From a virus: a DNA stretch of 37,650 bases. The notes below the pieces were generated by a model. It did not search any database and was not told where the DNA came from. It was given only the letters and a program-made list of their open reading frames with translations. This document shows positions 7,281 to 35,637 of the stretch, piece after piece (within the stretch, counting starts at the first letter, position 1; every line of letters starts with the position of its first letter). A program made the translations under genes and the position numbers. The stretch lies in the IMG/VR virus record IMGVR_UViG_3300045988_143600, one strand, 5' to 3'.

Positions 7281-7982
7281 TTGGATATTTTGGATAGAAT
7301 AACTATGCTTTTAGGCAATCGAGAGCAAAAAGAATTGACTAATTACCTGAAATTAAATAATGTTGCTTTTTCAGAATGGAAGTCTGGGAAAAGCAAATCA
7401 TATAGAAAATATCTAATTGAAATTGCTGAATTTTTTGATGTTTCAATAGATTACCTTGTTTACGGCAAAGAAAAAAGCTCACCAGCGGAACAGTTGACCG
7501 ATGATGAGCAAGAGTTACTTACATATTATAAGGAATTAGATTTAATGAAAAAGGGTCAAGTCCTCGAACGTGCCAAGGTCCTTTTTGAGCAGTCAAAAAT
7601 ACCATTAAAAGAGCTTGAAAACAGTGTTTTCATAGAGTACTATTCGTTGCCTGTCAGTGCCGGAACTGGCGTTGATCTGGATGGCTGCGAAAAAGGTATG
7701 TTGGAGGTTAAGAAAACGCAGCTCACTCTTGAGGCTAATTTTGCTCTAAGAGTGTCTGGCAACAGCATGGAGCCTGTATTCCACGACGGAGACGTAGTTC
7801 TGATAGCCTCGCAGCCATCTGTTGAGATCGGCGAGATAGGCATTTTTATACTTAACGGGGAAGGATTTATAAAGAAGTTCGGCGGAGATCGCTTGATTTC
7901 CCTTAACCCGGATTATGATGATATTCCGCTGCATGATTATGATAGTATCTATTGCCGGGGAAAGGTTATTGGAACTGTATGA
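7281..7982 (+). CDS. CI/LexA-type repressor (N-terminal HTH, C-terminal S24 peptidase)
   Basis: HTH region at the N-terminus. The C-terminus LRVSGNSMEPVFHDGDVVLIA...GEGFIKKF carries the Ser/Lys dyad context of S24 autopeptidases. Transcribed divergently from the early operon. The TTG start at 7281 is uncertain; ATG at 7305 is an alternative. Confidence 0.8.
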   Translation: MDILDRITMLLGNREQKELTNYLKLNNVAFSEWKSGKSKSYRKYLIEIAEFFDVSIDYLVYGKEKSSPAEQLTDDEQELLTYYKELDLMKKGQVLERAKVLFEQSKIPLKELENSVFIEYYSLPVSAGTGVDLDGCEKGMLEVKKTQLTLEANFALRVSGNSMEPVFHDGDVVLIASQPSVEIGEIGIFILNGEGFIKKFGGDRLISLNPDYDDIPLHDYDSIYCRGKVIGTV

Positions 7983-9698: not shown

Positions 9699-9707
9699 AT
9701 ATGTAAA

Positions 9708-9948: not shown

Positions 9949-10000
9949 TTTAAAAGCTCCTTTATTATTCAAATTTGAGATTATTCACAGCTTTGCACAT
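9943..10000. repeat. 58-bp direct repeat, copy A (partner at 10202..10259, 2 mismatches)
   Basis: TTTCATTTTAAAAGCTCCTTTATTATTCAAATTTGAGATTATTCACAGCTTTGCACAT. It duplicates the last codons of the integrase gene plus the RBS and start of the next ORF. Confidence 0.9.
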
Positions 10001-10207: not shown

Positions 10208-10259
10208 TTTAAAAACTCCTTTATTATTCAAATTTGAGATTATTCACAGCCTTGCACAT
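10202..10259. repeat. 58-bp direct repeat, copy B
   Basis: Partner of 9943..10000. Covers the integrase 3' end (…CKAVNNLKFE stop). Confidence 0.9.
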
Positions 10260-11114
10260 CTGATTAAAATTGCTATGTACATAACGCTGGGTAGTTGTTA
10301 TATCAACGTGTCCGAGCAATGCTCTAAGGGTTTCAATATCTGCACCGCACTGAATAAGATACGTAGCATAGCTATGTCTAAGCTTGTGCGGGGTGAGATA
10401 CTGTAAATCAGGATACTTTGTTTTTTGTTGCTCATAGAACGTTCTATAGAGCCTGTTATAACGTCTAAGAGATATTACTGTATGCGTTATAGGTGAAACG
10501 AACAGAAAGCCGTCTGAAACGTCCTGAGAGCGTATCTGATGAAGAATAGCTATTGCATTACTATGCAAGGGGATAAGCCTATCACGGCGAGATTTTGTGG
10601 TCTGTACAATCCTATCACCGCATGAAGTATGTACGAGTGTCTGACAAACTTTAAGATATCTGTTATCAAGGTCAATGTTATCCCAACTAAGAGCGAGAAG
10701 TTCACCACGGCGGAGACCTGTCTACAAGTCAAGCTGAAACATTCTGCAAACTCTACTATCATCATCAAAGAGATGTACGAGATTATCGGGGCTAAAATAT
10801 TCAGCTTCTTTTTTTATACGTTTTGGAGGTTTAATATAGTCGCAAGGGTTTTTGTCACAATAACCATTAACTATAGCTTCACGGAATACACGTTTAAGTA
10901 AGAAATATGAACGTCTTTGGCGGTCATTACTGTAAGATAGGGTGGATTTAAGACAATTCTGAATATCAATAGGCTTTACGCTCAGAAGCTCCATATCGGC
11001 TATATAACCGAAGTGTTTTTGATTTATATAGTAATAGTCCTTATAGCAATCATAGGCTATCACATCAACGCAGTATGCGTTATAGAACATCTCAAACCAT
11101 TCTTTAAAAATCAT
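10224..11114 (-). pseudogene. int: Tyrosine recombinase/integrase interrupted by a single in-frame TAG (10719..10721)
   Basis: The two track ORFs, 10722..11114 and 10224..10568, are in the same frame. Reading through gives ...MFQLDL*TGLRRGELLALSWDNIDL...HKLRHSYATYLIQCGADIETLRALLGHVDITTTQRYVH, which contains the R...HxxR...Y catalytic signature. Confidence 0.75.
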
Positions 11115-12112
11115 AGGACATCATCATTTCCATTCTCTTTAAGATATTGAAGTATATCATTGCAGTTCTTTTCGACTTGACTTGAAAAGGTGAAACTACT
11201 TTCATACTGATAACAGACATTAGCACGAGGGGGAGAAACTATCGGCAAATCGTCTTTAAAGTCTGAATTGCAAAAGATCTCTTTAGTTTTGCGGACAATG
11301 TTCTTGCTACTCCAGAAGAATTTGCCGAATATCTTCTTTACGTCCTTTGTTATGTACTTAGTGACATAGAAAGCTAAATTAGACATTTGTCCGTAAGTCT
11401 GAATAGCGGTTGAGAAACCATAACGCCAATCAGACACGTTATACACAACAGGCAAATCAGATATATCACAGCCGAGTTTATCACATATATGCAGGCGCTT
11501 TATAGTATCTATTTTAAGGGGCTTGTCATGACCCTTAACAAGACGTGTACCACTATCAACGAACTTAAAGTCACAATCGTTTATAAGGGCGTGGCAATGT
11601 ATACCGCCTTTTTTGTGATACTCAGGAACTAAGATATATTTAAGCCCTTTTCTACTAACTGCATTTTCAAGCCATTTTTTCAAAGGCTTTATGACTTCTT
11701 TAGGGTTTGTGCGGTCAAGGTTATCGCCATTAAAGGTAATAGTAAGGAAGTATTTCCAATCATTTTGATAAACTATATCAAAGATACTTTGCTTTGCTCT
11801 TTGAACACTATCGGAACGAACTTCACCGCTTTGTGACTGCTTATCTTTAAACTTACGAGTATCAAGCATATCAAGCATTATGTTTCCGTTTTCGTCCTCA
11901 TACTCAAAATAACATATGTAATTTTCACGAGCCGTTTTAAGTTGCTCTTGTCTTGAACGTTCGTCAATACTATGCTCATGCTTGCAGTGATACTCAAATG
12001 CAGGGTCTTTAAATATGTGTCGATCAGAACGTGTTATAGTGTAACTGCCGTCACGATATTCCTTTATCTTTGTATTGCACTTGACCTCTTTAGAAGACAT
12101 TTTTAGGGACAT
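11111..12112 (-). CDS. HUH rolling-circle replication initiator (Rep)
   Basis: Motif 1 is FLTITF, motif 2 (HUH) is GGIHCHALI and motif 3 is YVTKYITK. GGGAG RBS. Confidence 0.75.
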   Translation of the reverse strand: MSLKMSSKEVKCNTKIKEYRDGSYTITRSDRHIFKDPAFEYHCKHEHSIDERSRQEQLKTARENYICYFEYEDENGNIMLDMLDTRKFKDKQSQSGEVRSDSVQRAKQSIFDIVYQNDWKYFLTITFNGDNLDRTNPKEVIKPLKKWLENAVSRKGLKYILVPEYHKKGGIHCHALINDCDFKFVDSGTRLVKGHDKPLKIDTIKRLHICDKLGCDISDLPVVYNVSDWRYGFSTAIQTYGQMSNLAFYVTKYITKDVKKIFGKFFWSSKNIVRKTKEIFCNSDFKDDLPIVSPPRANVCYQYESSFTFSSQVEKNCNDILQYLKENGNDDVL

Positions 12113-12148
12113 TTATATCAACTCCCATTTATTAGGTGAGTGCTTTTT

Positions 12149-12223
12149 GTGGCTAATATCAAGTAATAGCCACACGCACCGCAGGGCGGCGCAAGCGCTC
12201 GCCCCTGCGGTCGCTCGTGGCTA
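12149..12223. promoter_or_regulatory. GC-rich hairpin cluster, candidate rolling-circle origin or packaging hairpin
   Basis: Alternative stems TGTGGCTA (12149-12156) / TAGCCACA (12167-12174) and TAGCCAC (12167-12173) / GTGGCTA (12217-12223). The second pair encloses CCGCAGGG (12179-12186) / CCCTGCGG (12203-12210). This is the only GC-rich stretch in an AT-rich element, and it lies between the Zot-like stop and the Rep start. Confidence 0.5.
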
Positions 12224-13015
12224 TACGCCACGCCTTTTTCGCAGGTTTCTGCTTGTCTTTCTATCGTGCATGATGTCACTTGTGACATCTACTCCACGAT
12301 TGGCAAGTATTTCCGTGTCGCTGATGTACTCCTTATCAAGCATATTATCTACAAGCTGAGAAGTATCATATAGCTGTCGACTCTGATTAGTCTGCAAATA
12401 CAAACGGCTGTAAAGCTTTTTCGGCATATATGACTTATTCTCCGTATACGCTTCATACTCGTCTATATCATAGGTTTTAACCTTAATAAGACGTGTATAA
12501 GGGTGATGGAATGTAGCACGGCACGTTGACACTGTAGCCGTTATATCTCGTATCTGTTTATCAAGTAGATTAAATCGTTGCACTGTAGCAAGTATCATCA
12601 TTTTGCGCTTTCTACATTGACAAAGGTGCTGAAAAAGCGGTTTAGAGACGGCTCTTTTACCACCTGAGAAATCTCGTGAATTGAAGATAGTGCCTATCTC
12701 ATCAATTACGACTATACAATTCTTAGGAGCGTGCAGGATATCTTGTGCGGAATTAAGCTTATAAATATTCGTCCACTCAGGGAAGTTTTGAAGATTGATA
12801 TTTGTAAGTATAGACAACTGAGGATAACGCACGCAATAGTTATATGCTATCTGAGCAAGGGTTGAGGTTTTACCTGTTCCGAATTTACCGGTATAAAGAT
12901 GTATGCCCCAACCTTGAAAGATAGCGGAATTATTGAAGTATGCACCAAAAAGGTGGTCATATACCTCATAGGTGATAAAGGGCGGTATTTGTTTTATGTA
13001 GTCAAATATAATCAT
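12221..13015 (-). CDS. pI/Zot-like P-loop morphogenesis ATPase
   Basis: Walker A is GKFGTGKTS and Walker B is CIVVIDEIG. Size and position after the small TM genes are as in inoviruses. No clear C-terminal TM segment was seen, so the assignment is by family resemblance and context. Confidence 0.6.
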   Translation of the reverse strand: MIIFDYIKQIPPFITYEVYDHLFGAYFNNSAIFQGWGIHLYTGKFGTGKTSTLAQIAYNYCVRYPQLSILTNINLQNFPEWTNIYKLNSAQDILHAPKNCIVVIDEIGTIFNSRDFSGGKRAVSKPLFQHLCQCRKRKMMILATVQRFNLLDKQIRDITATVSTCRATFHHPYTRLIKVKTYDIDEYEAYTENKSYMPKKLYSRLYLQTNQSRQLYDTSQLVDNMLDKEYISDTEILANRGVDVTSDIMHDRKTSRNLRKRRGV

Positions 13016-13025
13016 AACAAATCAC

Positions 13026-13235
13026 CTACACAGCACTTGCACAACGTGTCATGCGTATCATCACATTATAAAAGAACTTGCAGAAGATACAAAGCATAAC
13101 CACAGCGAATATAAATGCCATGCCGAGGAGCAAAGCGTCATATCTATTCATGACTTCTTGCGAGAGATCACAGCCCATTGACTTCAAAAGCTGAAAAAAT
13201 GGGTTATTTTCATCAAACACTATGTGTACTTTCAT
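13026..13235 (-). CDS. Small membrane protein
   Basis: 69 aa, with the TM segment ALLLGMAFIFAVVMLCIFCKFF. Confidence 0.45.
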   Translation of the reverse strand: MKVHIVFDENNPFFQLLKSMGCDLSQEVMNRYDALLLGMAFIFAVVMLCIFCKFFYNVMIRMTRCASAV

Positions 13236-13449
13236 TATCGTTCACCTCACAATCATCAGTTTCAACCGCAGGAACGGCTTTTATTTCAACATCTTCACCG
13301 AACATAAGAAACTCTATAAGCTGTTTTCTGTTTCCGCTGAACTCATGTTCAGCTTTAAAGTTTCTAAGGTCAGTGAAGAAACCTATAACACCGCTTATAG
13401 TACAAACCATAAAGCAGACAACGAGTATAAACAAAACCAAGTTAAGCAT
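13213..13449 (-). CDS. Small membrane protein (78 aa from ATG 13449)
   Basis: A strong AGGAGG RBS precedes MLNLVLFILVVCFMVCTISGVIGFF. Confidence 0.5.
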   Translation of the reverse strand: MLNLVLFILVVCFMVCTISGVIGFFTDLRNFKAEHEFSGNRKQLIEFLMFGEDVEIKAVPAVETDDCEVNDNESTHSV

Positions 13450-13453
13450 TTTT

Positions 13454-13528
13454 CTACCTCCTAACGAGCCATACAAGAGAAAGGACCATAAGAGCAACGA
13501 GGACAAATAAAACAATATTTACTAACAT
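13454..13528 (-). CDS. Tiny hydrophobic peptide (24 aa), pVII/pIX-like by size only
   Basis: Hand translation gives MLVNIVLFVLVALMVLSLVWLVRR. It is tightly packed between neighbouring ORFs and is too short for confident calling. Confidence 0.3.
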   Translation of the reverse strand: MLVNIVLFVLVALMVLSLVWLVRR

Positions 13529-13535
13529 AATAAAC

Positions 13536-13700
13536 CTACTTTCTAAGCATAAAATATAATAAAGTCAAGCTGATTGATAAAAGCATACCGCCTATAATAG
13601 CCGAACCGAGAGTAAAACTGTATTTGCCAAATGGAAACGTATAAGACATACAGTTCATCAGGAATTTAAAAACTAATTCAATACCATGTATTATATCCAT
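13536..13700 (-). CDS. Small membrane protein (54 aa), pVI-like position
   Basis: Hand translation gives MDIIHGIELVFKFLMNCMSYTFPFGKYSFTLGSAIIGGMLLSISLTLLYFMLRK. The GAGGTGA RBS overlaps the stop of the pIII-like gene. Confidence 0.45.
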   Translation of the reverse strand: MDIIHGIELVFKFLMNCMSYTFPFGKYSFTLGSAIIGGMLLSISLTLLYFMLRK

Positions 13701-13708
13701 AATTCACC

Positions 13709-15463
13709 TCACGTAGGTAAAACAAGCTTGATAAGCGCAATAGCTAAGAACAGCACAAACCATGCAGAGAACACAGCATAAAACCATGACGGCAAACAAG
13801 AAAGAGCGGCGGTGAGAAAATCCCAATATGTACCCGTTGTACTGAATATAGATTTTATATCCGTGAAATCAACAGAGCCGAAATTTGCATTAATTTTTTT
13901 CTTATCAAGATATTTGTTATAATCATCAGGTTGCATATATGAACCATCATTTATAACACCATCTGAACCCTTAGCAAGGTCAACGTCAGTGACCTTTGAC
14001 GGCGGTATATTACACAAGTCTTTAAGCTTTGTAGTCGAGGGATTATAAGTATTTCCGTCCTTGTCTTTATATACTTTAGGTACATAATCAGGAAACTTCT
14101 CATAAGAGAAAGGGTCTGAAATAACAGAATAAACACGATAAGCCTTGAATGTTTCAGGCTTGCCTGTTTCTTCATCAACGGACTTTACAAAATCATCAAT
14201 CTTCTCACACGTCTTAAGGTTTGTAAAATCTTCTTGATAGGCATACGAGCCGAGCCACGTTGAAGAATTTGTATCTTCTGTTTTTTCACCATTCTGAGGA
14301 GTAACATGACCGTTATTCTTTACAAATACACCGATAACATTAACATAAAGCTTGCTATCATCAGTAAGACCATGTGTTTTATAATCAATAGAAGTGAGAT
14401 CAAAAGATACAGTAATCTTGCCGTCACGAGGAATAGTATAAATAGGCGTTCGACCTTGATATAATGTTAAATACGGCTCAAAAGTATCAACAGTATCATT
14501 ACTATTCAAATCGTCAGAAGAAGAGCCGTCAGACTTAATTTTTTCATCATCTTGACCCTTGTAGTAATTGCCGTCATGGTTCATTGCATAAAGCACAACA
14601 TCTTCATCAAAGAAACGTTGTAGATCATCACCAGCGTTAAGAAGATTTTTTGAAAGACAACATAAAACGGCATAAGTGCCAGAGCCGTAAGCTTTTCCTA
14701 AGTCTTTTTCATTGAACGTTTTTAAAAACTCAGGTGAAAGCTTTATATCAAGGTTTATATTATTATTTTCAGCTGCTACAAGTCCATTTTCATCAGCATT
14801 AGCACCACCCTTTGACGGATAGTAAATTTTATTTTGCATATTCAATGAAAGTTCAGGTGTATATGTAACAGTAAACGGAGCAGGAACAACGGTGGGGTCT
14901 GTAGGGGTTACATCTTTATCAGGGTTAGACCAATCATAAACCTTAGCATTATGATAATAAACATAGGTATCAGCACCATTATCAGAATCGACACCAACGT
15001 GCATAGCAACACCGCAACTAACACTGGATATATCACCTATATTGGCAGAAAATTCAAAAAGACTAGATTGAGCTTTAAATACAAGTTGATTTTTATCATT
15101 ATAGCGATAAACATACCGATATGTTTTGTTGTCATCAGAATGACGATGATAATTTGAAATATAAAATTGTGATTGATTCAAAGTATCTATATCACCGCCG
15201 CTCAAATTAAGGTAAAATTTTTGAACAGTGTCAGGAACAAGATATATAAGAGAGTACTCTTTGCGGTTAGGCGAATAAAAGGCTATATATGAATCGGGTG
15301 TAAAACCCAAGTCAGAATTTATTTTTTTCAACGCCATATCAATAAAAAGTTTCATACCACCAGAACCATCAGACTGCTTTAAAGCGAATGCAGGAACAGC
15401 ACAACATATCATCACAACAAGTGCAGAGATCATACACAACACTTGCTTAATCTTTTTTCTCAA
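13709..15463 (-). CDS. pIII-like minor coat/adsorption protein (signal peptide plus C-terminal membrane anchor)
   Basis: The N-terminus MRKKIKQVLCMISALVVMICCAVPAFA is signal-like. The C-terminus WFYAVFSAWFVLFLAIALIKLVLPT is a membrane anchor. It is the largest ORF and follows the coat gene, as gene III does in Ff-type phages. TTG start. Confidence 0.55.
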   Translation of the reverse strand: MRKKIKQVLCMISALVVMICCAVPAFALKQSDGSGGMKLFIDMALKKINSDLGFTPDSYIAFYSPNRKEYSLIYLVPDTVQKFYLNLSGGDIDTLNQSQFYISNYHRHSDDNKTYRYVYRYNDKNQLVFKAQSSLFEFSANIGDISSVSCGVAMHVGVDSDNGADTYVYYHNAKVYDWSNPDKDVTPTDPTVVPAPFTVTYTPELSLNMQNKIYYPSKGGANADENGLVAAENNNINLDIKLSPEFLKTFNEKDLGKAYGSGTYAVLCCLSKNLLNAGDDLQRFFDEDVVLYAMNHDGNYYKGQDDEKIKSDGSSSDDLNSNDTVDTFEPYLTLYQGRTPIYTIPRDGKITVSFDLTSIDYKTHGLTDDSKLYVNVIGVFVKNNGHVTPQNGEKTEDTNSSTWLGSYAYQEDFTNLKTCEKIDDFVKSVDEETGKPETFKAYRVYSVISDPFSYEKFPDYVPKVYKDKDGNTYNPSTTKLKDLCNIPPSKVTDVDLAKGSDGVINDGSYMQPDDYNKYLDKKKINANFGSVDFTDIKSIFSTTGTYWDFLTAALSCLPSWFYAVFSAWFVLFLAIALIKLVLPT

Positions 15464-15480
15464 TTTATCAACTTCCTTTC

Positions 15481-15517
15481 AAAAAAATTAAGCGGAGCAA
15501 TTTGAATTACTCCGCTT
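15481..15517 (-). terminator. Rho-independent terminator between the coat gene and the pIII-like gene
   Basis: The minus strand reads AAGCGGAG-(12 nt)-CTCCGCTT followed by AATTTTTTT. The placement is analogous to the terminator after gene VIII in Ff phages. Confidence 0.65.
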
Positions 15518-15533
15518 ATGTAAATGGTTTTGC

Positions 15534-15689
15534 TTATACAGCGTGTCTGAACTTTGCGAAAAGTCCTGCACCAGAGCCGAGAAGAGACAGACCTACAAGA
15601 ATTGCAATAGGTACGTTGCTTGTCATAGCGTCCCAACAAGAACCAAAAACAGTAACGGCATTACTAAGCATTGTTGTTACAGCTTCCAT
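15534..15689 (-). CDS. pVIII-like major coat protein (51 aa), below the ORF-track cut-off
   Basis: Hand translation gives MEAVTTMLSNAVTVFGSCWDAMTSNVPIAILVGLSLLGSGAGLFAKFRHAV. It has an acidic N-terminal part, a single TM helix and a basic C-terminus (K, R, H). AAAGGAG RBS. Confidence 0.6.
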   Translation of the reverse strand: MEAVTTMLSNAVTVFGSCWDAMTSNVPIAILVGLSLLGSGAGLFAKFRHAV

Positions 15690-15743
15690 TATTAGCAAAA
15701 CTCCTTTCTTATTAAATTTTTATAACAGCGGTTTCACCGCTAA

Positions 15744-16061
15744 TTATTTTGTGTTGCGGTGAAGTGTTCCGTCTGCATTGATTACGGTGATATCAACAAG
15801 CTGAGAACGTCCGTTAAAAATCTGATAGTTCAGCATTACATCACAGCCGAGAAGCTTATTGAAATCCTCAGAATTTCCGTTAAGTCTGATTGCATTTTCG
15901 GTCGGTATTTTCAGTGTATCGACCATTTTTCCATGACAGTCGGGGTTATCAACTTCCTGCAGAAGCTGAAAGACGACCTTTTCAGGGCTGTTTATCTGCT
16001 TGCCCTCTATAACTCCGTTAAATGCTTTCTTTTTTGTCCAGCCTACGATAGTTGTTTTCAT
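15744..16061 (-). CDS. First gene of the structural operon; possible gene V-like ssDNA-binding protein (by position and size only)
   Basis: 105 aa from the ATG at 16061 (MKTTIVGWTKKKAFNG...). It lies upstream of the coat gene, as gene V does. No motif-level support is available. Confidence 0.35.
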   Translation of the reverse strand: MKTTIVGWTKKKAFNGVIEGKQINSPEKVVFQLLQEVDNPDCHGKMVDTLKIPTENAIRLNGNSEDFNKLLGCDVMLNYQIFNGRSQLVDITVINADGTLHRNTK

Positions 16062-16097
16062 GTTTTTTTCCTTTCTGAGGTTTTTCGGCTTTTCCTC

Positions 16098-16150
16098 TGA
16101 TGTTTGACAAGCAAAATCCAAAAAACTGACAAGCAAAACGCAAAAAAGTG
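16098..16150. repeat. Mu-like right terminal inverted repeat with tandem TGACAAGCAAAA sites
   Basis: TGATGTTTGACAAGCAAAATCCAAAAAAC starts with TG. TGACAAGCAAAA occurs at 16105-16116 and 16127-16138. ACGCAAAAA (16139-16147) is mirrored by TTTTTGCGT near the left end. Confidence 0.75.
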
Positions 16151-16191
16151 ATGAAATGTTTCAACAAAACGAAACACTCATCACTTTTTTT
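16142..16191. terminator. Bidirectional terminator-like hairpin just inside the phage right end
   Basis: 13-bp perfect outer stem AAAAAAGTGATGA / TCATCACTTTTTT with inner stem GTTTC/GAAAC. Flanked by A- and T-runs. Confidence 0.7.
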
Positions 16192-16221
16192 GAATTATCG
16201 AGAATTTTTGAAACGTATTTT

Positions 16222-16413
16222 TTACAGCTCTAAAATGTCATTTAAATCGCATTTTAAAAATCTGCAAATCAGCTCAAGATGTGAAAATTTGAAACCGACA
16301 GCGATGTTATTGCAAAGCTGTGAGATTGTGGACGGTCTGATGCCTGTCGCCTGCGCAAGTTCAGCCTGAGTAATGCCCCTGGAATTAAGCAAAGCCCTTA
16401 ATTTTACTCTCAT
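16222..16413 (-). CDS. Small XRE/Cro-type HTH protein (last gene at the phage right end)
   Basis: LRALLNSRGITQAELAQATGIRPSTISQLCNN is an HTH motif. GGAGG RBS. Confidence 0.65.
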   Translation of the reverse strand: MRVKLRALLNSRGITQAELAQATGIRPSTISQLCNNIAVGFKFSHLELICRFLKCDLNDILEL

Positions 16414-16440
16414 GATTACCTCCGGTATGTTTTTTACAAC

Positions 16441-16465
16441 ATAAATAACGAAATCCGTTATTTAT
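16441..16465. promoter_or_regulatory. Perfect 10-bp inverted repeat upstream of the small HTH gene (operator-like)
   Basis: ATAAATAACG-AAATC-CGTTATTTAT, located between the Dam stop and the HTH start. Confidence 0.45.
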
Positions 16466-16480
16466 TCTCTAAAAAAAATA

Positions 16481-17218
16481 CTAGAAATTTGTGATTATTA
16501 CCTCTTTGAAATCACCTGATGAAAGACTGTTATTGCGGGTGACCGCCTGAATATTGTAGTCTTTATACAGGTCTCTCACATACTTGTCATCGTTGTACGA
16601 CAGTACAAATCTGCCCTTGATCTGGTGAAGAACTCTGCAGAGCCGCTCATGGTCATCCTCGGTAAATTTAACAGTGTAATGCCGCTCTGTCTTGTGGTAT
16701 GGAGGGTCGCAGTAGAATAAAGCTTTCTCACGGTCGTATACCTTGATAAGATCCTCAAAATCTTTGTTTTCGATCACTACTCCATCCAGTCTTGCCTCGA
16801 TATCTGCGAAATTATCTGTGTTAAGCCGCTTTTTGTTGCAGCCGAACGTTCTCAGACTTGCTCCGAAGCCTGTCTTGACAAGCACATAGAACATAGCAGC
16901 CCGCTGAATGTCTGTAAATCCGGTTACAGATATGCGCTCACGGCAGTCAAGGAACATTTCCCGGCTGTTTAAATAGTATTTTATCTCCTTTTTAAGCTCA
17001 TCAGAATGATATTTTAAGCATCTGAAAAAGTTGACCAAATCACTGTTGGCGTCATTATAGATCTCTAGATCAGCGTGTTTGCCTTTTGCAAAAAGTATAG
17101 ACCCGCCTCCGCCGAATACATCGATAAATCTGTTGTAGCTTTCAGTAGGCGGGAAAGACTTGATGATCTTACTTTTAAGCTGGCTCTTTCCACCAATCCA
17201 TGGTATTGGACTTTTCAT
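16481..17218 (-). CDS. dam: Dam-type N6-adenine DNA methyltransferase (D12 class)
   Basis: N-terminal PIPWIGGKSQL, FGGGGS (AdoMet binding) and the catalytic DPPY (FYCDPPYHKT). Confidence 0.85.
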   Translation of the reverse strand: MKSPIPWIGGKSQLKSKIIKSFPPTESYNRFIDVFGGGGSILFAKGKHADLEIYNDANSDLVNFFRCLKYHSDELKKEIKYYLNSREMFLDCRERISVTGFTDIQRAAMFYVLVKTGFGASLRTFGCNKKRLNTDNFADIEARLDGVVIENKDFEDLIKVYDREKALFYCDPPYHKTERHYTVKFTEDDHERLCRVLHQIKGRFVLSYNDDKYVRDLYKDYNIQAVTRNNSLSSGDFKEVIITNF

Positions 17219-28396: not shown

Positions 28397-28633
28397 CTAC
28401 ACCTCCGTTTCGCTTGTCGTATCCTCTACCGCAACTGCATCGACGATTTCCTGAATGATTGCGTCCTTCTTGCTTGCCGACCCGAGGTCAATGCCAAGTT
28501 CGGCGGCATAAGCTTTTAGTTCAGGGACTGTCATGCTCTTATAATCAATGACATTTTCATTTTCGCAATAGTCGGCAGGCGGTTCTATTGTTATTGGCTT
28601 CTCGTTAAAAGTCAATCCTACTGTCTTTGCCAT
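28397..28633 (-). CDS. Small protein with Rho-N/SAP (HeH)-like motif
   Basis: MTVPELKAYAAELGIDLGSASKKDAIIQEI is a helix-extension-helix motif. It lies downstream of the capsid gene. Confidence 0.5.
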   Translation of the reverse strand: MAKTVGLTFNEKPITIEPPADYCENENVIDYKSMTVPELKAYAAELGIDLGSASKKDAIIQEIVDAVAVEDTTSETEV

Positions 28634-28644
28634 AACGACACCTC

Positions 28645-29532
28645 CTATGCCTTGTGGTGCAGATAAATACCTGCCGCCTTGTTTTCGTACACATCAGCCA
28701 GACCATAAGCACGGAAGAAGAACAGCCAGCTGTCATCCGTCTGATTTTCCTCCGGCGTAACGACCTTGTTTACCGTGTGCTTAGGATACTGGATAACCGC
28801 CGACTTCTGGATTATCATAAAGTTTATATCCTTTGCGGTTGTCGCCTTAGCAAAACCGCCTGCCGTTTCATCGACGCCCTCTGATTTTGTCGTGCCGTCC
28901 TTAAGATCGATCGCAGTGTAAAATCTGCTCTGAGGCACTTTTACGATCTTAGCAAAGCCGTCAAGTACAGCCTTTGACTTTGTGGTGTCCACATTGATAG
29001 CAAGGTTATACAGAGTAGGAGTGATGTACAGAATACGGTTTTCCGGCGATACTTCGTCTTCGTCCATTTTGTTCTGTGCAGTGATCAGAGCGGTAAGGAC
29101 ATCATTACCCGATGAAAGTGTTGCTCCTGCAGAAACCTTAGATATGCCTGTTGTACCTGCATAGGTCGCGAACCTGAATGCGTCCTGTTCGGGAGCAACC
29201 TTGACGCGGATAAACTCTGAGGACAGTCTGCCGAAAGCAAGTCCTGCAGTCTCCTCATTGTCCATATTGTCAACGCTGAATTTACGACCTCTGTCGTAAT
29301 TAAAGGTAACAGTCTCGTTTGTAAGAGTAACGTCGCCCTTTACATAGCCACTGTTTCTGGAGTAGTCCGCCAGACCGTCCATAGAGATCTTAGGGATTAT
29401 GATCTCATTTGCGTTTGCGCCCGCTTTAACAAGAGTAGGATCGCTGTCGAGATCGGCGGTCAAAGATGCCTGCTTGTAAACCTCGTCAAGCAGTGCGATG
29501 TAGGTTTTAAATTTTGTAATTGCGTTTGCCAT
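28645..29532 (-). CDS. Major capsid protein
   Basis: 295 aa, directly after the scaffold gene, with a strong RBS. Composition and size are typical of Firmicutes siphophage capsid proteins. Confidence 0.75.
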   Translation of the reverse strand: MANAITKFKTYIALLDEVYKQASLTADLDSDPTLVKAGANANEIIIPKISMDGLADYSRNSGYVKGDVTLTNETVTFNYDRGRKFSVDNMDNEETAGLAFGRLSSEFIRVKVAPEQDAFRFATYAGTTGISKVSAGATLSSGNDVLTALITAQNKMDEDEVSPENRILYITPTLYNLAINVDTTKSKAVLDGFAKIVKVPQSRFYTAIDLKDGTTKSEGVDETAGGFAKATTAKDINFMIIQKSAVIQYPKHTVNKVVTPEENQTDDSWLFFFRAYGLADVYENKAAGIYLHHKA

Positions 29533-29552
29533 AATATTTTACCTCCGTAAAA

Positions 29553-30089
29553 TTACTTAGTCGCAGGCAGACCCATTACGGCTCTTGCCTGTGCGTCTGA
29601 TGTTGTTTCTGTTGCCGAACCGTGGTCAAGACCGGTGTCTATCCTTGCGGTAGGCTCATCACCATCCGCAAAGAGAAATGCTTTGTCGGCCTTAAGCTTG
29701 TCAAGCTGTTCGGTAAGACCTGTGATCTTGCCGTCATCGTCAAGCTTGAGGAGCGACGAGTCAAGCTGAGACTTGACAATGTCCACATCTCTTGCTTTTG
29801 CTCCGGCAAGGGACAGTTCCAGAGCCTTGTCAAGCTTAAGTGCGGCAATATCTGCATTGTACTTGCTTTCCCAGTCGGACGCCGCTTTCTTAAGTCCTTC
29901 AATGTCCTCGCCGTCAAATGCTTTGACCTTATCAGTAAGCTCTGAGATCGTGCCTTTTGCCGTTTCCAGTTCTGCGTTAAGGTCTGTGTACTTCTGCTGT
30001 TCTGCGGTCAGCTCCGCTGTGTGCTGTTCAAGCACCTTGTTTGCCTGCTCCTCGGTAATACCGAGAGCTGTTAAATCTTTCAGTTCCAT
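29553..30089 (-). CDS. Scaffolding protein
   Basis: 178 aa, highly charged and coiled-coil (ELTAEQQKYTDLNAELETAKGTISELTDKVKA...). It lies upstream of the capsid gene. Confidence 0.75.
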   Translation of the reverse strand: MELKDLTALGITEEQANKVLEQHTAELTAEQQKYTDLNAELETAKGTISELTDKVKAFDGEDIEGLKKAASDWESKYNADIAALKLDKALELSLAGAKARDVDIVKSQLDSSLLKLDDDGKITGLTEQLDKLKADKAFLFADGDEPTARIDTGLDHGSATETTSDAQARAVMGLPATK

Positions 30090-30219
30090 AGGGATTTTTC
30101 CTCCTTAATTTTGAGTATAAAATTTATCTCCTCGCAAGCGGCTCGGATTTTTGCTCCGCAAAAACGAGGATAAATAAAACGCCCTTGAAAGAGCGTTTTA
30201 CTATCGTTAAAATGCAGTT

Positions 30220-30360
30220 TTAATCATCTGATAAATCTACAAGGCATTTAATAACCAAACAAATACCTTTTATTATTGTGAAGACCCATGCGGCTACATA
30301 ACAGCCAACGGGGATTTGCCCTGTATCGAGGGCGTAAAGCAATATAAGGGTTGAAAGCAT
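30220..30360 (-). CDS. Small hydrophobic protein (46 aa), below the ORF-track cut-off
   Basis: Hand translation gives MLSTLILLYALDTGQIPVGCYVAAWVFTIIKGICLVIKCLVDLSDD. AAAGGAG RBS. It is followed by hairpins at 30120-30200. Confidence 0.4.
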   Translation of the reverse strand: MLSTLILLYALDTGQIPVGCYVAAWVFTIIKGICLVIKCLVDLSDD

Positions 30361-30410
30361 AAATTATCAGCTCCTTTTTGCAAAATTAAAAGCCCCCAGT
30401 AGCTGGGAGC

Positions 30411-30671
30411 TTATTCATTATGAATTTGAAAATAAACCTTATCATAAATATCCAATGCTTTATATCCGAAATCTGTCATATTATTCTGATTTTCGTCCAT
30501 GCCATAAACAACTGATATGTTGCTAATTATGCATTGAAACATAGAAACATCTTTATTATTTATTTCTATCTGACTTGTTTCGGGGAAGAGCTTGTATGGG
30601 TATTCCAAATCTTCAAAATCGCCATATTTGACAAGCATTTCATATTCATCTTTTTTGAAATTGAATATCAT
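30411..30671 (-). CDS. Small acidic protein, candidate immunity partner of the MuF C-terminal domain
   Basis: 86 aa from the ATG at 30671. The GAGGTG RBS overlaps the MuF stop codon, which implies translational coupling. No recognisable motif. Confidence 0.5.
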   Translation of the reverse strand: MIFNFKKDEYEMLVKYGDFEDLEYPYKLFPETSQIEINNKDVSMFQCIISNISVVYGMDENQNNMTDFGYKALDIYDKVYFQIHNE

Positions 30672-30682
30672 AATAATACACC

Positions 30683-32353
30683 TCACTTTGGATTACATTG
30701 AATAAGCACGCCCGTTTCAGGATTTATGGATACTGCACATTTATCTGTAACAAATAGCTGAGATATTTTAGGTTTACCATCTTCATCATATAAAATGTTA
30801 CCGTTTTTATCCCTGCTAATTTTGGGTTTCATTGCTTTACCATTGGTCAAAGCATCCTGAATATCTTGAAGTTCAACGCCAAGACGTTTCTTACCCGTAT
30901 CAGGATCTTTGATTACACCAATAACACGTTCAATGAAATGATCCGATTGCCCAGTTATTTCAATACCGTTAGTTGTAGTTAAACCAACAAGACTGTTGTT
31001 AATCTCATTGTGCAACTTCTTATAATGATCGTAACCTACAAGCGGAGAAAATTTTCCCTTTTTTACAGAAGTAATATATGCATTCATCAATTTGCACTCA
31101 GGAGAGTTATTATACTTCATATTTTCAAAAATGTCAAGGCTTTTCGGCGGATTTTCTATGCCGTAGCTTTTCATTTGCTTAACAAAGTAACGATTATTCC
31201 CATATACCGCTTTCTGCGAAACACTCTTGTTAAATCCAACAACCCGAACTCTGTCCTTTTCGGAATAAAGATCGTTCGTATCGCAAAACTCAGACAGCCG
31301 TTTTTCCTTAGTTTTCAGTATAGCCGAGTGGCGTTCAAACTGATTTTGCAGTCTCCGTTTAAGCACCTCGTCTTCCGTCTCAGAGATAGCACCGTCATAT
31401 GCAGCTAAACGTCTTTTTGTAGCTCGTATAGACCGCTCCATAGCACGCTGTTTCTGCGATAATTCATACTGTCTGTTGTTTTCGGTCACGTCAACAGGGA
31501 GATTAGCACGTTCGGAAATTCCCTCGAAAAACGGATAAAAATCATGTCGGCAGTTCCAGCCTTTCAAGCCGTCACCCGTTCCGTAGCCTGTGGCGGTGCT
31601 GAGTTTAGGGTATTTTTTAGATTTGCCCGAAATGCTGTAAACCTTGCCTTGCCATAAAGCGTGTGAGGGACGCGCGCCCATGTGTGCGGTGACCTCAACC
31701 AGATCGCAGTCCATTTCTGCGGCAAGATCAAGCTGCATCTGACCTGCGGTCTGACTTATGCCCGTCATTACCGCACGCCGCACTGCAACGTCTGCCCAGT
31801 CGGTCTTACCCGATGGATAAGTTACAGTCGCAATACCTTGTTTAGCAAGCTCGACAACTGCGTCGTAAATAGCATCCTGATATGTAAAAGCACCGCTTTG
31901 TACCTTTAACCATGCCTTGTCCATAAGATGAGTAACAGTTGCCTGCGAGGACTCTACCATGGACTTACACAGATTTTTTGTCATACCATTTGCATTTTTA
32001 ACGCCTGCCTTAAGCGTGTTGGATAATGCCACCGACCTCAGAGCGGCGGAGCAGTCCTTGCCGTAAGTTCTGTATATCTTGGCGTCGTTGTTGATTGCCT
32101 CCTTACAGGCATCGGTGTACAGCTTTGATATCTGCCGCTTTGATTTGCCTGTAAATTCTGCAAGCATAGCAGTGATCTCTTTTGTAGACATCTTCAACTG
32201 GCTTGCTTTGTACAACTGCCATTCTGCCGAGGGAGTAAGATAGTCCGCTTTAACAAGCTTTTTGGCAATAGACTTGATTATATCAGTCTGTACCTCGCTT
32301 ACAAGATCAATCAAGTCATCTGGCAGTTTTTGTAACGTCTGAGGGGTAAGCAT
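30683..32353 (-). CDS. MuF / SPP1 gp7-type head morphogenesis protein with a roughly 170-aa C-terminal extension (toxin-like)
   Basis: The core carries GWNCRHDFYPF, typical of the minor capsid protein 2/MuF family. The extension ends ...GQSDHFIERVIGV...CAVSINPETGVLIQCNPK, resembling small RelE/BECR-fold nuclease domains. Confidence 0.75.
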   Translation of the reverse strand: MLTPQTLQKLPDDLIDLVSEVQTDIIKSIAKKLVKADYLTPSAEWQLYKASQLKMSTKEITAMLAEFTGKSKRQISKLYTDACKEAINNDAKIYRTYGKDCSAALRSVALSNTLKAGVKNANGMTKNLCKSMVESSQATVTHLMDKAWLKVQSGAFTYQDAIYDAVVELAKQGIATVTYPSGKTDWADVAVRRAVMTGISQTAGQMQLDLAAEMDCDLVEVTAHMGARPSHALWQGKVYSISGKSKKYPKLSTATGYGTGDGLKGWNCRHDFYPFFEGISERANLPVDVTENNRQYELSQKQRAMERSIRATKRRLAAYDGAISETEDEVLKRRLQNQFERHSAILKTKEKRLSEFCDTNDLYSEKDRVRVVGFNKSVSQKAVYGNNRYFVKQMKSYGIENPPKSLDIFENMKYNNSPECKLMNAYITSVKKGKFSPLVGYDHYKKLHNEINNSLVGLTTTNGIEITGQSDHFIERVIGVIKDPDTGKKRLGVELQDIQDALTNGKAMKPKISRDKNGNILYDEDGKPKISQLFVTDKCAVSINPETGVLIQCNPK

Positions 32354-33813
32354 TACTCCTCACCGTCCTCAAAGCCCATAAGCTCATCGTCGGTAGGTTC
32401 ACCGTCTGCAAGACGTGCCTTTGCCTCCTCTTCCGATTCGCCGTACCATTTAACACGGTATTCCCACTTCTGCATTAAACCTGCTGTGACATCATCTTTG
32501 TCACGTTGTCGCTCGGCATTTTCGTCTACCAGTGGACTTTGGTCAAAGACTATGGATATATGTGCGTCCTCCTTGACCTGTGCGTCGATAAAGCTGTGGC
32601 CTATCCAGAGGAGCGTTTTAACAAGACCATGCAAAAAGCTCTCAACTTTTATAAAATGCTTGTGTGCGTTTTGGATCAAGTCCTGCTTGTCGCCTGTGTA
32701 CTGGGTAGCAGTTACTATAGAGCCTGCATTAAACTGATAATGCTTAGTACCAAATCCCACCTTAAAGCTGAGATAATCAAGCTGTGCCTGTATACCCGCC
32801 GTATTGTCTGCAACTCTCAGATCGGGATTATGCTCCTGCACCATACTCTTACCCGTGCCATCGTCCATAGTCTCGCCGATATAATAAAACAGTTGTTGAT
32901 TTACCTCATCGGGAGCAACCTTTTTATCTCCAGACATATCTTCAAGCATATTTTTGTTTAAAAACACTTTTTTCTGTCCCAACCAAAAATCAGAGTTAAG
33001 ATTATTATATGCAAGATCAACTCCCTTCAAGTTGTCAATCGCTCCGGCAAAAACCGCACAGCCCATCCCATTATTGCCGTTAATGGGATTAACGATAGCA
33101 GGTTTGCATATGGTAAACCAAGACTTGTCTGATCCTGTATGCATTATTCTTGCAACACCGTCCGGCAGAGGTTCTTCGCTCAACAGCGATTTATCTTTTA
33201 TTCCAAAGATGTGATTTTCTATGACATATTCGCCTTTTTCCAGACGGTGTATCTCAAGATACAGCTTGTTGCTGCCTTTTGTACAGATATCGGAGCAAAA
33301 CGCTGCTTCGGTGATAATGCCGTTGTCCGATGATAGGACTATTATCCTATCCGCCTCAAGGTAATTTAGATCTATCCATGCGTCCGGTGACGGCAGAAGT
33401 CTGCCGTCTGAGCTTACCACAGCATTTTTAAGACGTATCACAACGGCACAAGTGCCGGAATACATCATTTTTTCCATGAGGTCGTTAGCCTGATCCCAGA
33501 AGTTGTTGCTGCCGAACACTCCGCCGTTGTCGGTATCGCCAACGATGAACTTTTCCGAGTATTCATCATCTACTTTTACAAACGTTTTGTCGTTTATTAA
33601 TATGCTTGCCCAGTCCTCGCACACCTTTTTGGCCATTTTCATGGTATACATATCACGACTCTTGCGTTTTTCTCCGTTTTCAAAAGTTATCCTATGAAAT
33701 GGTTCATGAAAACCCTTCCACCAGTCTTTCCATACGGATATATTATTATAATAGTTGGTCGAAATGTTATAGCCGAAGTTATTATTCAGCCAGTTTATTA
33801 TCTCACTGTTCAA
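32353..33813 (-). CDS. Portal protein (SPP1 gp6-type)
   Basis: 486 aa, between TerL and MuF, with overlapping start and stop codons on both sides. Confidence 0.8.
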   Translation of the reverse strand: MNSEIINWLNNNFGYNISTNYYNNISVWKDWWKGFHEPFHRITFENGEKRKSRDMYTMKMAKKVCEDWASILINDKTFVKVDDEYSEKFIVGDTDNGGVFGSNNFWDQANDLMEKMMYSGTCAVVIRLKNAVVSSDGRLLPSPDAWIDLNYLEADRIIVLSSDNGIITEAAFCSDICTKGSNKLYLEIHRLEKGEYVIENHIFGIKDKSLLSEEPLPDGVARIMHTGSDKSWFTICKPAIVNPINGNNGMGCAVFAGAIDNLKGVDLAYNNLNSDFWLGQKKVFLNKNMLEDMSGDKKVAPDEVNQQLFYYIGETMDDGTGKSMVQEHNPDLRVADNTAGIQAQLDYLSFKVGFGTKHYQFNAGSIVTATQYTGDKQDLIQNAHKHFIKVESFLHGLVKTLLWIGHSFIDAQVKEDAHISIVFDQSPLVDENAERQRDKDDVTAGLMQKWEYRVKWYGESEEEAKARLADGEPTDDELMGFEDGEE

Positions 33814-35186
33814 ATGTTTTCACCTCCTGCCAGCGTTAGCGGCTTGATAAATTTGCTAAAGCTGTACTCCAGAGCGTCAGCGGTATCTATATCGCAAGTA
33901 CCGTCGTCAAGACGCTCGTCTCTGTCCGGAATTTTAGGATCCCATATCTGCTCCGACAAGCTTCCGATAACATTTTTGCAAATGTCAAGCACCCAAAATC
34001 TGCCCTGAGCCATCAAAGACGTAAGCATAGATATTCTGTCGTTTCGTGGAGCTTTGTAGCAGTCCACGATCTTGACCATCAGTCTTGCTCTGGCACAGGC
34101 TACTCTCAGACCGTTTATTACCGCTTGGTTTTCGTTGTCCGCCCATGCAAATTTAATTAAAAGCGGATTAAAACGCATATATAACGTCTTTACAAACTTT
34201 ATAAAAGCAGTGTAAATAGTATCGGGACCGACCTCGCCCTTGCCGCCGTCTATTTTGTGATCTGCAATAACGACAAGCTTTTTAAAGCCCTCAATAAAAG
34301 CCGTAGCCACGAATGTGGTCTTTGACTTGTTGCCGCCGAAGTCGATACCTATCTGTATTGATGTGATCTTGCTTTTGTCAAGCTGTGATTCGGGTATTAT
34401 ATACTTTTCGGGGTCGTTGGCAAAGCTCTGGAAGATAAGACCCTCTGCCGCTATCCTTAACCCCAGTATATCTCGCTTGTACCAGATAGATGTCGGATCG
34501 TACTGAGATTTTACCTCAGCCTTACGCTGATCTGAGATATTTATGTTATCGTCAATAGTAAAATGTGCGTAGTTGTATCCACCGAGGAATTTGCAATCGG
34601 CGGCGTCCTGCTGGTACTTGTCAATGTACTCGGTGTATATCCAGCTTTTTGGATTGTCCGGGTTAAGATCCCACCATATCTTACGCTTATCTGCGGCGAT
34701 AGATCTGTTAAAAGCCTCCTGCACAAATGATTTGTGATGCAGATTGATCTCAGTACCTATCCACATACCATAAGAGTTGCCTCGTATGGACTTATAACTG
34801 CTGGCAAGCATAGCGCCGGAAAAGATGACGATCCTTGTTTTAAATCCTGTATCCTTGCCCTTTATGATAAGAGCCTCATTGCCCTTGTACTTACCCCAGC
34901 GGCATTGACCTCGAAAGAAATGCTCAATACCAAAGCCGTTACAGTCGCCAAGAATGATTTTCGCATTGCCGAGTGTTGACGCCGATGCAAGATGTATCTT
35001 GTCTTTAGTAGTCTTAAGCTCGTGACAAAAAGCAAGAACGTTGTCCACTGTCTTTCCGGCTCTTACCGCTCCCTCGGCAACGTTTATCATGCAGTCCTGT
35101 GACTTTCGGATATATGCCTTATGCTTATCGCCAAAATTGTAGGGTATGGTCTTTTTGCGTTTCTCAGGCTTAGTTGTCCTTGCCAT
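33810..35186 (-). CDS. terL: Terminase large subunit (PBSX/Terminase_3-like)
   Basis: Walker A-like GAVRAGKT near the N-terminus. GAGGAGGA RBS precedes the ATG at 35186. It lies upstream of the portal gene. Confidence 0.85.
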   Translation of the reverse strand: MARTTKPEKRKKTIPYNFGDKHKAYIRKSQDCMINVAEGAVRAGKTVDNVLAFCHELKTTKDKIHLASASTLGNAKIILGDCNGFGIEHFFRGQCRWGKYKGNEALIIKGKDTGFKTRIVIFSGAMLASSYKSIRGNSYGMWIGTEINLHHKSFVQEAFNRSIAADKRKIWWDLNPDNPKSWIYTEYIDKYQQDAADCKFLGGYNYAHFTIDDNINISDQRKAEVKSQYDPTSIWYKRDILGLRIAAEGLIFQSFANDPEKYIIPESQLDKSKITSIQIGIDFGGNKSKTTFVATAFIEGFKKLVVIADHKIDGGKGEVGPDTIYTAFIKFVKTLYMRFNPLLIKFAWADNENQAVINGLRVACARARLMVKIVDCYKAPRNDRISMLTSLMAQGRFWVLDICKNVIGSLSEQIWDPKIPDRDERLDDGTCDIDTADALEYSFSKFIKPLTLAGGENI

Positions 35187-35637
35187 AGATATCCTCCTCA
35201 ATTTCCGACGTGTCCTCCAGCTCAGGATCAGCCTTGGGATTCGGTGACCAGTTTTCTTTGTCTTTATTCTGCAAATAGCTCAGAGCGGCGGACGGATTGG
35301 GAGCGACTTTTTTTACCCTGCGCCTGATCGTTTTGCGCCCTCTGGCGTCAACTCTAACTTCTTCCTCTGCATATTCGCCGCCCAGGGCCGCCGCAAGCAA
35401 AGCTCTCTCCACTTCGGAGTTTACAAGTTCAGGATTGTCGTCCAAAAAATCCTGAAGTTCCTTGTGCCGCTTTTTATAATCTGTGGCAAGCTTTTTCCGT
35501 TCTGCCTTGTCGGAGGTATTAATAAAAGCCTCCGACAGCTCGCCGAGGCTTTGTATATCCGTCTGTATTTTTACATCATTAATGTTGCTTACAGCTGCCG
35601 ACAGCGTGTCGATAGCCTGTTTTCTCTTTACATTCAC
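35170..35637 (-). CDS. terS: Terminase small subunit-like protein
   Basis: The C-terminal half ALLAAALGGEYAEEEV...RRRVKKVAPNPSAALSYLQNKDKENW matches the conserved TerS pattern of Firmicutes phages. It overlaps the terL start. Confidence 0.55.
   Translation of the reverse strand: MNVKRKQAIDTLSAAVSNINDVKIQTDIQSLGELSEAFINTSDKAERKKLATDYKKRHKELQDFLDDNPELVNSEVERALLAAALGGEYAEEEVRVDARGRKTIRRRVKKVAPNPSAALSYLQNKDKENWSPNPKADPELEDTSEIEEDIYGKDN

Follow-up and report, generated by a model that had tools for sequence, protein, structure and literature searches.

A 37,650-nt stretch of viral DNA (IMG/VR record IMGVR_UViG_3300045988_143600, analysed over its full length and hereafter called the window) was found to carry what is probably a MuF-type polymorphic toxin-immunity cassette, located among the genes that form the head-morphogenesis operon in a temperate Mu-like phage of gut Bacillota. 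This reading is based on sequence comparisons and structural models. The minus strand of the window encodes, at 30683..32353 and directly after the portal gene, a MuF-superfamily protein of 556 amino acids (aa). Several features of MuF polymorphic toxins were recognised here, namely the N-terminal MuF-superfamily domain, the position of the gene right after the portal gene, a polymorphic C-terminus and a temperate carrier. A MuF polymorphic toxin arrangement had been proposed in a first-pass annotation made from the sequence, and this prediction was supported by the PF06152 core, the exchange of the cassette between related phages, the presence of known toxins in the same slot and the replacement of the partner gene together with the domain.

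The core of the protein was matched by the Pfam family PF06152 (Phage_min_cap2) over residues 2-357 at E 3.2e-105, and the protein also matched the minor head protein family phrog_581. The open reading frame (ORF) contains GLKGWNCRHDFYPFFEG, and the motif GWNCRHDFYPF is present. The core had first been assigned to the SPP1-gp7 type; it is a member of the PF06152 branch and not of the SPP1-gp7/PF04233 branch. The PF06152 branch of the MuF superfamily corresponds to the 'MuF2' group of Jamet et al. (PMC5576092). An extension after the core had also been described, and it is real (approximately 170-200 aa), but the junction lies at residue ~387/388 (window position ~31194) and not at residue ~380.

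The extension is the exchangeable part of the protein. Of 231 phage records with a MuF relative, only 10 showed coverage of at least 80% of the protein, and most of the matches ended at about residue 385. Fifty-five viral contigs with related MuF cores were taken, and the sequence following the core was classified in 48 of them. The same C-terminal domain was present in 22, essentially no extension was present in three, and the others carried unrelated extensions. The contrary expectation set out at the first pass, that the extension would be conserved in all MuF homologues, therefore fails, with about half of the contigs that have an extension bearing an unrelated one, and an extension that is a constant structural part of MuF proteins was ruled out by the exchange among related cores.

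The boundaries of the exchanged block were sharp. The cores of loci L053 and L066 are 93-94% identical to the window core at the amino acid level, yet their C-termini are different; L055 (core 84% identical) and L061 (core 69% identical) also bear unrelated C-termini. By blastn, L053 and L066 showed 87-89% nucleotide identity to the window over 33900..31194 and again over 30413..28607, with none between. The replaced block corresponds to window positions 30414..31193, that is, MuF residues ~388-556 plus the downstream ORF of 86 aa. The 5' break in homology lies inside the conserved ...SVSQKAV and the 3' break at the stop codon of the small ORF, with homology back at 30413/30412 in L053, L061, L062 and L066 (blastn). 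A terminator-like hairpin directly after the small ORF is kept even under other cassettes (L061, L062) and forms the conserved 3' anchor of the block. The stretch singled out in the first-pass annotation, 30411-31201, agrees closely with this block, which was mapped independently. The G+C content is 0.45-0.54 in the core but falls to 0.30-0.38 between the junction (~31200) and ~30100, a region that spans the cassette and also a 46-aa ORF of the backbone. Exchange of a cassette between near-identical backbones is what characterises polymorphic toxin loci.

Known toxins were detected in the same slot. The domain Ntox50 was present in L055 and L087 (65 and 46.8 bits; cut-off 22.2) and CdiA_C in L079 (28 bits; cut-off 26.6), and some other alternative C-termini contain HExxH-type motifs. 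The alternative C-terminus of L053 is followed by an unrelated 82-aa ORF, and that of L055 by an unrelated 75-aa acidic ORF.

The partner encoded in the 3' part of the window cassette has an isoelectric point (pI) of 4.3 and a net charge of -9. Its ATG is at 30671, 11 nt past the MuF stop codon and separated by a 9-nt spacer from its ribosome-binding site. The length of 86 aa, the acidity and the overlap of the ribosome-binding site with the MuF stop all agree with the first description of this gene. The ATG, and not the upstream GTG at 30686, is likely to be the start codon because the homologues begin with M-x-F-x-F. In related loci the gap between the MuF stop and the small ORF ranged from -35 to +20 nt; such tight or overlapping gene junctions are compatible with translational coupling, which is probable here.

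A relative of the small protein followed the domain in 56 of the 57 loci with the domain and a complete downstream ORF. Distant copies of the domain also preceded distant copies of the small protein, in L006 (85 aa), in L008 (81 aa) and in 28 of 29 genome loci, the related genome loci having been found with a 10-sequence alignment of the domain. All small proteins of the family are acidic, with a median pI of 4.4, compared to 9.0 for the toxin domains. Pairwise identity of the domain was correlated with that of the small protein (r 0.89; Mantel p≤5e-4). The correlation between domain and MuF core was r 0.56, and the partial correlation between domain and small protein when controlling for the core was 0.84. 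For L018 and L020, the cores are 17% identical, the domains 77% and the small proteins 60%.

An AlphaFold2 model of the small protein, built on a shallower alignment than that of the broad family, had a predicted local distance difference test score (pLDDT) of 96.2 and the order strand-helix-strand-strand-helix-helix. The 86-aa ORF is regarded as real and not as a chance ORF because of its homologues at almost all of the loci and the high score of this model. The small protein belongs to no Pfam family, and no fold match to it was found in PDB (best E 0.68). Identity with ImmE5, CdiI, Imm22 or another known immunity fold was considered, and no tie was found in the Pfam and PDB fold searches. 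The properties of the small protein are strongly those expected of a cognate immunity protein, and this predicted role, which had been proposed from the gene order, is well supported by the replacement of both genes together, their co-occurrence and a co-divergence that is independent of the core.

Relatives of the C-terminal domain were numerous. A word-index search found only 11, and a profile word-index search gave few further relatives and no informative names. An exhaustive search with a hidden Markov model (HMM) recovered at least 828 clusters (50% identity) at E≤1e-3, of which 535 passed E≤1e-10. The domain ended 18 residues or fewer from the C-terminus of the protein in 148 of 149 full-length matches, the sole exception being a protein whose reading frame runs on into a copy of the small protein. 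Fusion to PF06152 cores was seen in 47 of 134 members and to PF04233 cores in 31; P0011, whose HPYCRS motif is of the type seen in Mu F/SPP1 gp7, is an example of the latter.

The conserved unit extends from about residue 400 and reads PKSLDxFxxMKYNNS..., then GLTTxNGIxIxGQSxHFxERVxG, a loop, and RxGVxxxDIxDAL ... CxVSxNPxTGxLIQxNP. The loop VIKDPDTGKKRL is swapped for a short GSVEQRR in some members. H472 and R476 were the sole invariant columns in 41 diverse sequences, and R490, N544 and Q552 were nearly invariant. The S-x-H-x-x-x-R opening noted at the first pass was confirmed as S470-x-H472-x-x-x-R476, and the strings quoted with it (TNGIEITGQSDHFIERVIGVIKDP ... LFVTDKCAVSINPETGVLIQCNPK) are the real C-terminus of the protein. 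The helical region preceding the toxin core was modelled as helices (pLDDT 87-90) and is conserved throughout the family, including in the members with PF04233 cores. A toxin module had been placed in the C-terminal extension; the exchanged unit begins at about residue 388 with this helical pre-domain and not at residue 440.

Several irregular gene structures were observed among the relatives. The reading frames of P0102 and P0197 continue past the toxin domain and take in a small acidic protein of the same family; these two are apparent toxin-immunity fusions, either natural or due to a frameshift. Two of 30 long family members contain intein splicing domains. In L006 (2111-4663), and also in L007, the MuF gene is split into a 305-aa core ORF and a 220-aa ORF; in L006, the latter consists of the end of the core and the toxin domain, and a 197-aa HNH/NUMOD homing-endonuclease ORF (3196-3789) lies between the two halves. 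The split point in L006 is at approximately residue 305-310 of the window MuF protein. Such an arrangement points to an intron in the MuF toxin gene or to the insertion of a free-standing homing endonuclease there. In L008 (3152-4788), and also in L009 and L010, the MuF protein was called as two ORFs of 294 aa and 264 aa with a 43-nt overlap, which suggests that a frameshift, be it programmed or an error of assembly, separates the core from the part with the toxin.

The AlphaFold2 model of residues 378-556 (pLDDT 89; predicted TM-score 0.79) consists, in order, of helices, a beta-hairpin, a helix at 471-478 with H472 and R476, a second helix and a beta-sheet. The best local match by Foldseek against PDB was the CdiA-CT of E. 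coli NC101 (5i4r; E 0.09, probability 0.77), and the further matches were entries of the colicin E5 C-terminal RNase domain (3ao9, 2djh, 2fhz) and a Serratia CdiA-CT. The leading entries are tRNases of the BECR fold (Barnase-EndoU-ColicinE5/D-RelE nucleases). Against BFVD, matches were obtained to the C-terminus of a mimivirus 'hemagglutinin' (E 0.009) and to a DUF4258 protein of Microbacterium phage Honk (probability 0.87, E 0.16). The family HMM, made from 149 domains of which none is streptococcal, matched the C-terminus of the MuF protein of S. pyogenes prophage 315.4 with 44.5 bits (E 1.3e-6, Z = 1.8e9), and pairwise BLASTP gave E 1e-8. The phage 315.4 C-terminus in turn matched Pfam DUF4258 over its full length with 21.7 bits (E 2.6e-4), the curated cut-off being 25. 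According to Zhang et al. 2012 (PMC3482391), Ntox49 is a predicted RNase of the BECR fold, has a conserved 'H, [KR]' signature and is present on MuF proteins, and DUF4258 overlaps Ntox49 in the colicin-like BECR branch according to a 2026 preprint (10.64898/2026.08.28.747851). The invariant H472 and R476 agree with the Ntox49 signature.

The RelE, Ntox50, PBECR and DUF4258 models, with which the first-pass annotation had proposed to compare the domain, were checked and gave no match to this protein. For DUF4258 (PF14076), no match to the window domain was obtained even at E≤10, and the family consensus sequences reached this model at 12.7 bits only. The window protein did not match Ntox50 (PF15542) or PBECR1-5, and PBECR3 matched one of 41 relatives at E 0.026. 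The Ntox50 model is able to detect such domains, as true Ntox50 was found in L055 and L087. Colicin_E5 (PF12106) matched only two of the 41 relatives, at E ~0.025, and the conserved residues differ. No match to RelE/ParE models was obtained with the window domain or the 41 relatives. Direct Pfam membership was rejected, as no BECR family was among the matches listed for 134 family members scanned singly. For the suggestion of a RelE/BECR-fold toxin, the BECR fold is moderately supported, and the fold matches favour the colicin-E5-like branch over RelE proper.

Several observations weigh against a nuclease toxin. The Foldseek matches in PDB had E values of 0.09-0.9 and target-normalised TM-scores of 0.36-0.44 over about 60 columns, and none was significant. 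The link to DUF4258 is transitive, and its last step is under the curated cut-off; DUF4258 was among the listed matches of none of the 134 family members at E≤0.1. In addition, the activity of DUF4258 is listed as unknown, with no member demonstrated (Gerdes 2025, PMC11980606). The window's own domain had no sequence match in Pfam, NCBIfam or PDB when the C-terminal 115-199 aa were searched. Its toxin core (residues 458-556) is not basic (pI 6.8), although toxin domains across the family mostly are, and the PDB fold search linked the small protein to none of the known immunity proteins. A PHROG search of the same C-terminal 115-199 aa gave noise only, and when a profile built from 41 sequences of the domain was run against PDB sequences, nothing but spurious histone H2B matches (E 0.3) appeared.

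In our reading, the domain represents a divergent family that is related to DUF4258/Ntox49, bears an insertion and an additional pre-domain, and falls outside PF14076 as now defined. On the basis of the alignments and models, a nuclease-like toxin of the BECR type has moderate support, and the domain probably acts as a metal-independent RNase by means of H472 and R476; this assignment of fold and chemistry is held to be fairly likely.

With this assignment, we infer toxicity, RNase chemistry, neutralisation, packaging and injection as follows. The MuF core (residues 1-387) would serve as the carrier, as a conserved portal-associated minor head protein. Residues ~388-556 would be the exchangeable payload, made up of the helical pre-domain and an alpha/beta core of about 100 aa, most likely with a colicin-E5/DUF4258-like BECR RNase fold, in which H472 and R476, aided by R490, might act as catalytic or RNA-binding residues. 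By analogy with SPP1 gp7 and with StB12, a few copies of the MuF toxin could be packaged in the capsid at the portal and enter the next cell with the DNA. In SPP1, gp7 is ejected with the DNA, and MuF proteins bind DNA. A MuF toxin has been detected in StB12 virions (PMC5576092). In the recipient, the domain would cleave cellular RNA (tRNA, rRNA or mRNA) and so arrest translation, and in the producing cell the 86-aa acidic protein would bind and neutralise it. If the prophage also expresses the 86-aa protein, lysogens would be protected.

The same biochemistry might instead serve the phage's own cycle. The domain would then be an injected effector that acts through RNA cleavage in host shut-off, in counter-defence or in biasing the choice between lysis and lysogeny, and not a weapon against competitors; the small protein would guard only the producer cell, during late expression. 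This is the less likely reading. It is in keeping with the fusion of the toxin to a protein whose SPP1 counterpart is ejected along with the DNA, and an influence on the lysogeny decision was proposed by Jamet et al. (PMC5576092). The gene also lies in a late operon, so a lysogen need make neither toxin nor immunity protein. The fast turnover of cassettes on near-identical backbones, however, is that of antagonistic diversification with immunity specificity, and the slot is shared with Ntox50 and CdiA_C, which are domains of inter-bacterial competition.

A further point bearing on this explanation is a perfect sigma-70 consensus upstream of the immunity gene, with the terminator-like hairpin after it, which would speak against it. 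The match precedes both the toxin core and the immunity gene, and similar sites are present at the homologous position in many loci, where TATAAT encodes 20 of 21 Tyr-Asn codon pairs. A synonymous-recoding null model applied to 15 non-redundant loci was not significant (Fisher p 0.10, median p 0.47). The likeness to a promoter is explained by the conserved L-D...K-Y-N-N motif and AT-rich codon usage. A selected internal promoter was dropped after this test, a result that is in line with an effector of the phage's own cycle. Judged by its sequence, the match could nonetheless drive transcription of the immunity gene.

Alternatively, the domain could be a non-toxic accessory part of the head protein, binding nucleic acid or the portal for packaging or ejection, with the small protein as an assembly chaperone or nucleic-acid mimic. 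This is improbable. The weak evidence for a nuclease fold, the lack of a curated family match, the neutral and not basic character of the domain in this phage and the binding of DNA by MuF proteins would all fit such a role, and two thirds of MuF extensions were without a known toxin domain in the survey of Jamet et al. (PMC5576092). Such a domain would not, however, be expected to undergo wholesale replacement by unrelated domains, certified toxins included, in backbones that are 84-94% identical, and it would need no partner that is replaced and diverges with it. The invariant H/R pair on the first helix and the matches to BECR RNase folds also suit an enzyme. A RelE-type type II toxin-antitoxin module (addiction or abortive infection) fused to MuF and acting within the lysogen, so as to stabilise the prophage or keep out other phages, is very improbable: DUF4258 is grouped with the RelE/ParE superfamily (PMC11980606) and RelE-like features had been noted at the first pass, but the toxin shares one polypeptide with a late structural protein, is always C-terminal and precedes its partner, neither a DNA-binding domain nor an antitoxin family match was detected in the 86-aa partner, the fold favours the colicin-like branch, and the cassette occupies a polymorphic-toxin slot.

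The cassette, read as a MuF-type toxin-immunity pair, is the kind of system described in 2012 and 2017, and its domain and partner families are unannotated. It resembles the described MuF polymorphic toxins (PMC3482391, PMC5576092) in the MuF N-terminus, the position of the gene after the portal gene, the variable C-terminus, the small ORF downstream and the carrier, a temperate phage of human-gut Bacillota. It differs from them in that both families are without a match in a 2025 copy of Pfam-A or in NCBIfam, and in that the carrier is Mu-like and transposable. With no Pfam or NCBIfam family, the domain would probably be classed as an 'unknown domain' in a Pfam-based survey like that of Jamet et al. 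This 2017 survey left about two thirds of MuF C-terminal extensions without a recognised domain (PMC5576092).

Compared with Ntox49/DUF4258 (PF14076), the domain is alike in size, in the order helix-helix-strand-strand-strand, in its occurrence on MuF proteins and in the conserved H and R/K where the first helix begins. In most members, unlike in DUF4258, an insertion of 10-20 aa (VIKDPDTGKKRL) separates the H-x3-R helix from the second conserved R, the beta region is longer and a helical pre-domain of about 70 aa is obligatory. The immunity protein is not Imm22. The colicin E5/ImmE5 and CdiA-CT/CdiI NC101 pairs (2dfx, 2fhz, 3ao9, 5i4r) are alike in having a small RNase toxin, here a predicted one, at the C-terminus of a delivery protein and a small acidic downstream partner that neutralises it, or here would do so. 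Colicin E5 and CdiA-CT NC101 are the best structural matches, yet these are weak (~60 columns, 16-21% identity). The colicin E5 signature of K, W, Y, Y, Q, [RK], W (PMC3482391) differs from the residues conserved here, and the small protein matched neither ImmE5 nor CdiI in fold. Delivery of the MuF toxin would be by the phage capsid, whereas the colicin and CDI systems use receptor-mediated import or contact-dependent inhibition.

The minor capsid protein of the S. pyogenes prophages 315.4, phiNIH1.1 and Javan has a PF06152 core and a homologous C-terminal domain, followed by an acidic ORF of 70-79 aa. The streptococcal domain is without the helical pre-domain and the insertion and is closer to DUF4258 (21.7 bits), and jackhmmer did not recruit the streptococcal downstream ORF into the small-protein family. 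SF370.1, to which the 315.4-type proteins are likened by description only, was reported as a MuF2 toxin with a putative nuclease by Jamet et al. (PMC5576092).

A Mu-like transposable temperate phage with a gut Bacillota host seems to be present almost in full in the window. The temperate, Mu-like and transposable character of the phage follows from the MuA-like transposase, the MuB-like protein and the CI-like/S24 repressor. The MuF protein is 99.6% identical in MT835795.1, a contig from a human faecal virome. The closest bacterial record was a Ruminococcus metagenome-assembled genome, and relatives are held by the chromosomes of many gut Bacillota. The coordinates of the features are collected in Table 1.

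Table 1. Features of the cassette, the head-morphogenesis operon and the phage, in window coordinates.
Feature	Coordinates	Strand	Remarks
MuF-superfamily core, residues 1-~387	31194..32353	-	PF06152 Phage_min_cap2; conserved backbone part of minor head protein
Helical pre-toxin region, residues ~388-457	30983..31193	-	Motif PKSLDxFxxMKYNNS; 5' part of cassette; travels with toxin domain
Sigma-70-type promoter match TTGACA-17-TATAAT	31109..31137	-	12/12; within L-D-I-F-E-N-M-K-Y-N coding sequence
Predicted BECR-like (colicin-E5/DUF4258-like) RNase toxin core, residues ~458-556	30686..30982	-	Alignment, AlphaFold2, Foldseek
H472	30938..30940	-	Invariant
R476	30926..30928	-	Invariant
R490	30884..30886	-	Near-invariant
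MuF stop TGA (30685..30683) overlapped by GAGG ribosome-binding site (30684..30681)	30681..30685	-	Read from sequence
86-aa acidic protein, predicted cognate immunity protein	30411..30671	-	3' part of cassette; stop TAA 30411..30413
G+C-rich hairpin and T-run, terminator-like	30390..30412	-	10-bp stem, 6 G-C pairs; directly after small ORF
46-aa strongly hydrophobic ORF	30220..30360	-	Between cassette and scaffold gene; own AAGGAG ribosome-binding site
Terminase large subunit	33810..35201	-	Head-morphogenesis operon
Portal	32353..33813	-	phrog_533, E 7e-87
Scaffold	29553..30089	-	Head-morphogenesis operon
Major head protein	28645..29532	-	Head-morphogenesis operon
MuA-like transposase, 672 aa	3206..5224	-	phrog_310, E 2e-113
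MuB-like transposition protein, 307 aa	2279..3202	-	
CI-like repressor with S24 domain	7281..7982	+	

The hydrophobic 46-aa ORF is kept in L001-L005, and also in L053, whose cassette differs. By these comparisons it is part of the conserved backbone, outside the swapped cassette, and it is possibly a small membrane protein. Elsewhere in the window, a long stretch of low G+C content was observed at ~7000-17000 (0.33-0.41, compared to 0.44-0.51 elsewhere). This stretch holds a 584-aa ORF (13709..15463) without a PHROG match and a 333-aa ORF (11111..12112) with a match to a rolling-circle replication initiator-like family, and it possibly consists of accessory or acquired genes.

MuF toxins are thought to be common in the temperate phages of the human gut, and few have been studied experimentally. 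The current picture of MuF toxin systems is left unchanged by this locus. A more far-reaching view, which is put forward only tentatively, is that an undescribed, MuF-restricted toxin-immunity pair is abundant in gut Bacillota phages, that its toxin is an RNase of new specificity, and that the embedded promoter and the hairpin make the immunity gene a self-contained transcription unit. If this were true, the unit would keep immunity on in lysogens while the late genes are silent, and prophages would make their hosts immune to toxin injected by related virions. The locus defines a large, unannotated toxin/immunity family pair with sharp boundaries, in which the fold of the small protein is without a solved relative in the PDB fold search. 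H472, R476 and R490 are testable as catalytic residues, and L053 and L055 provide natural comparison phages that differ essentially in the cassette alone. The locus would thus be suited to the study of the delivery of a packaged toxin, of its RNA target and of prophage immunity in the competition among gut Bacillota.

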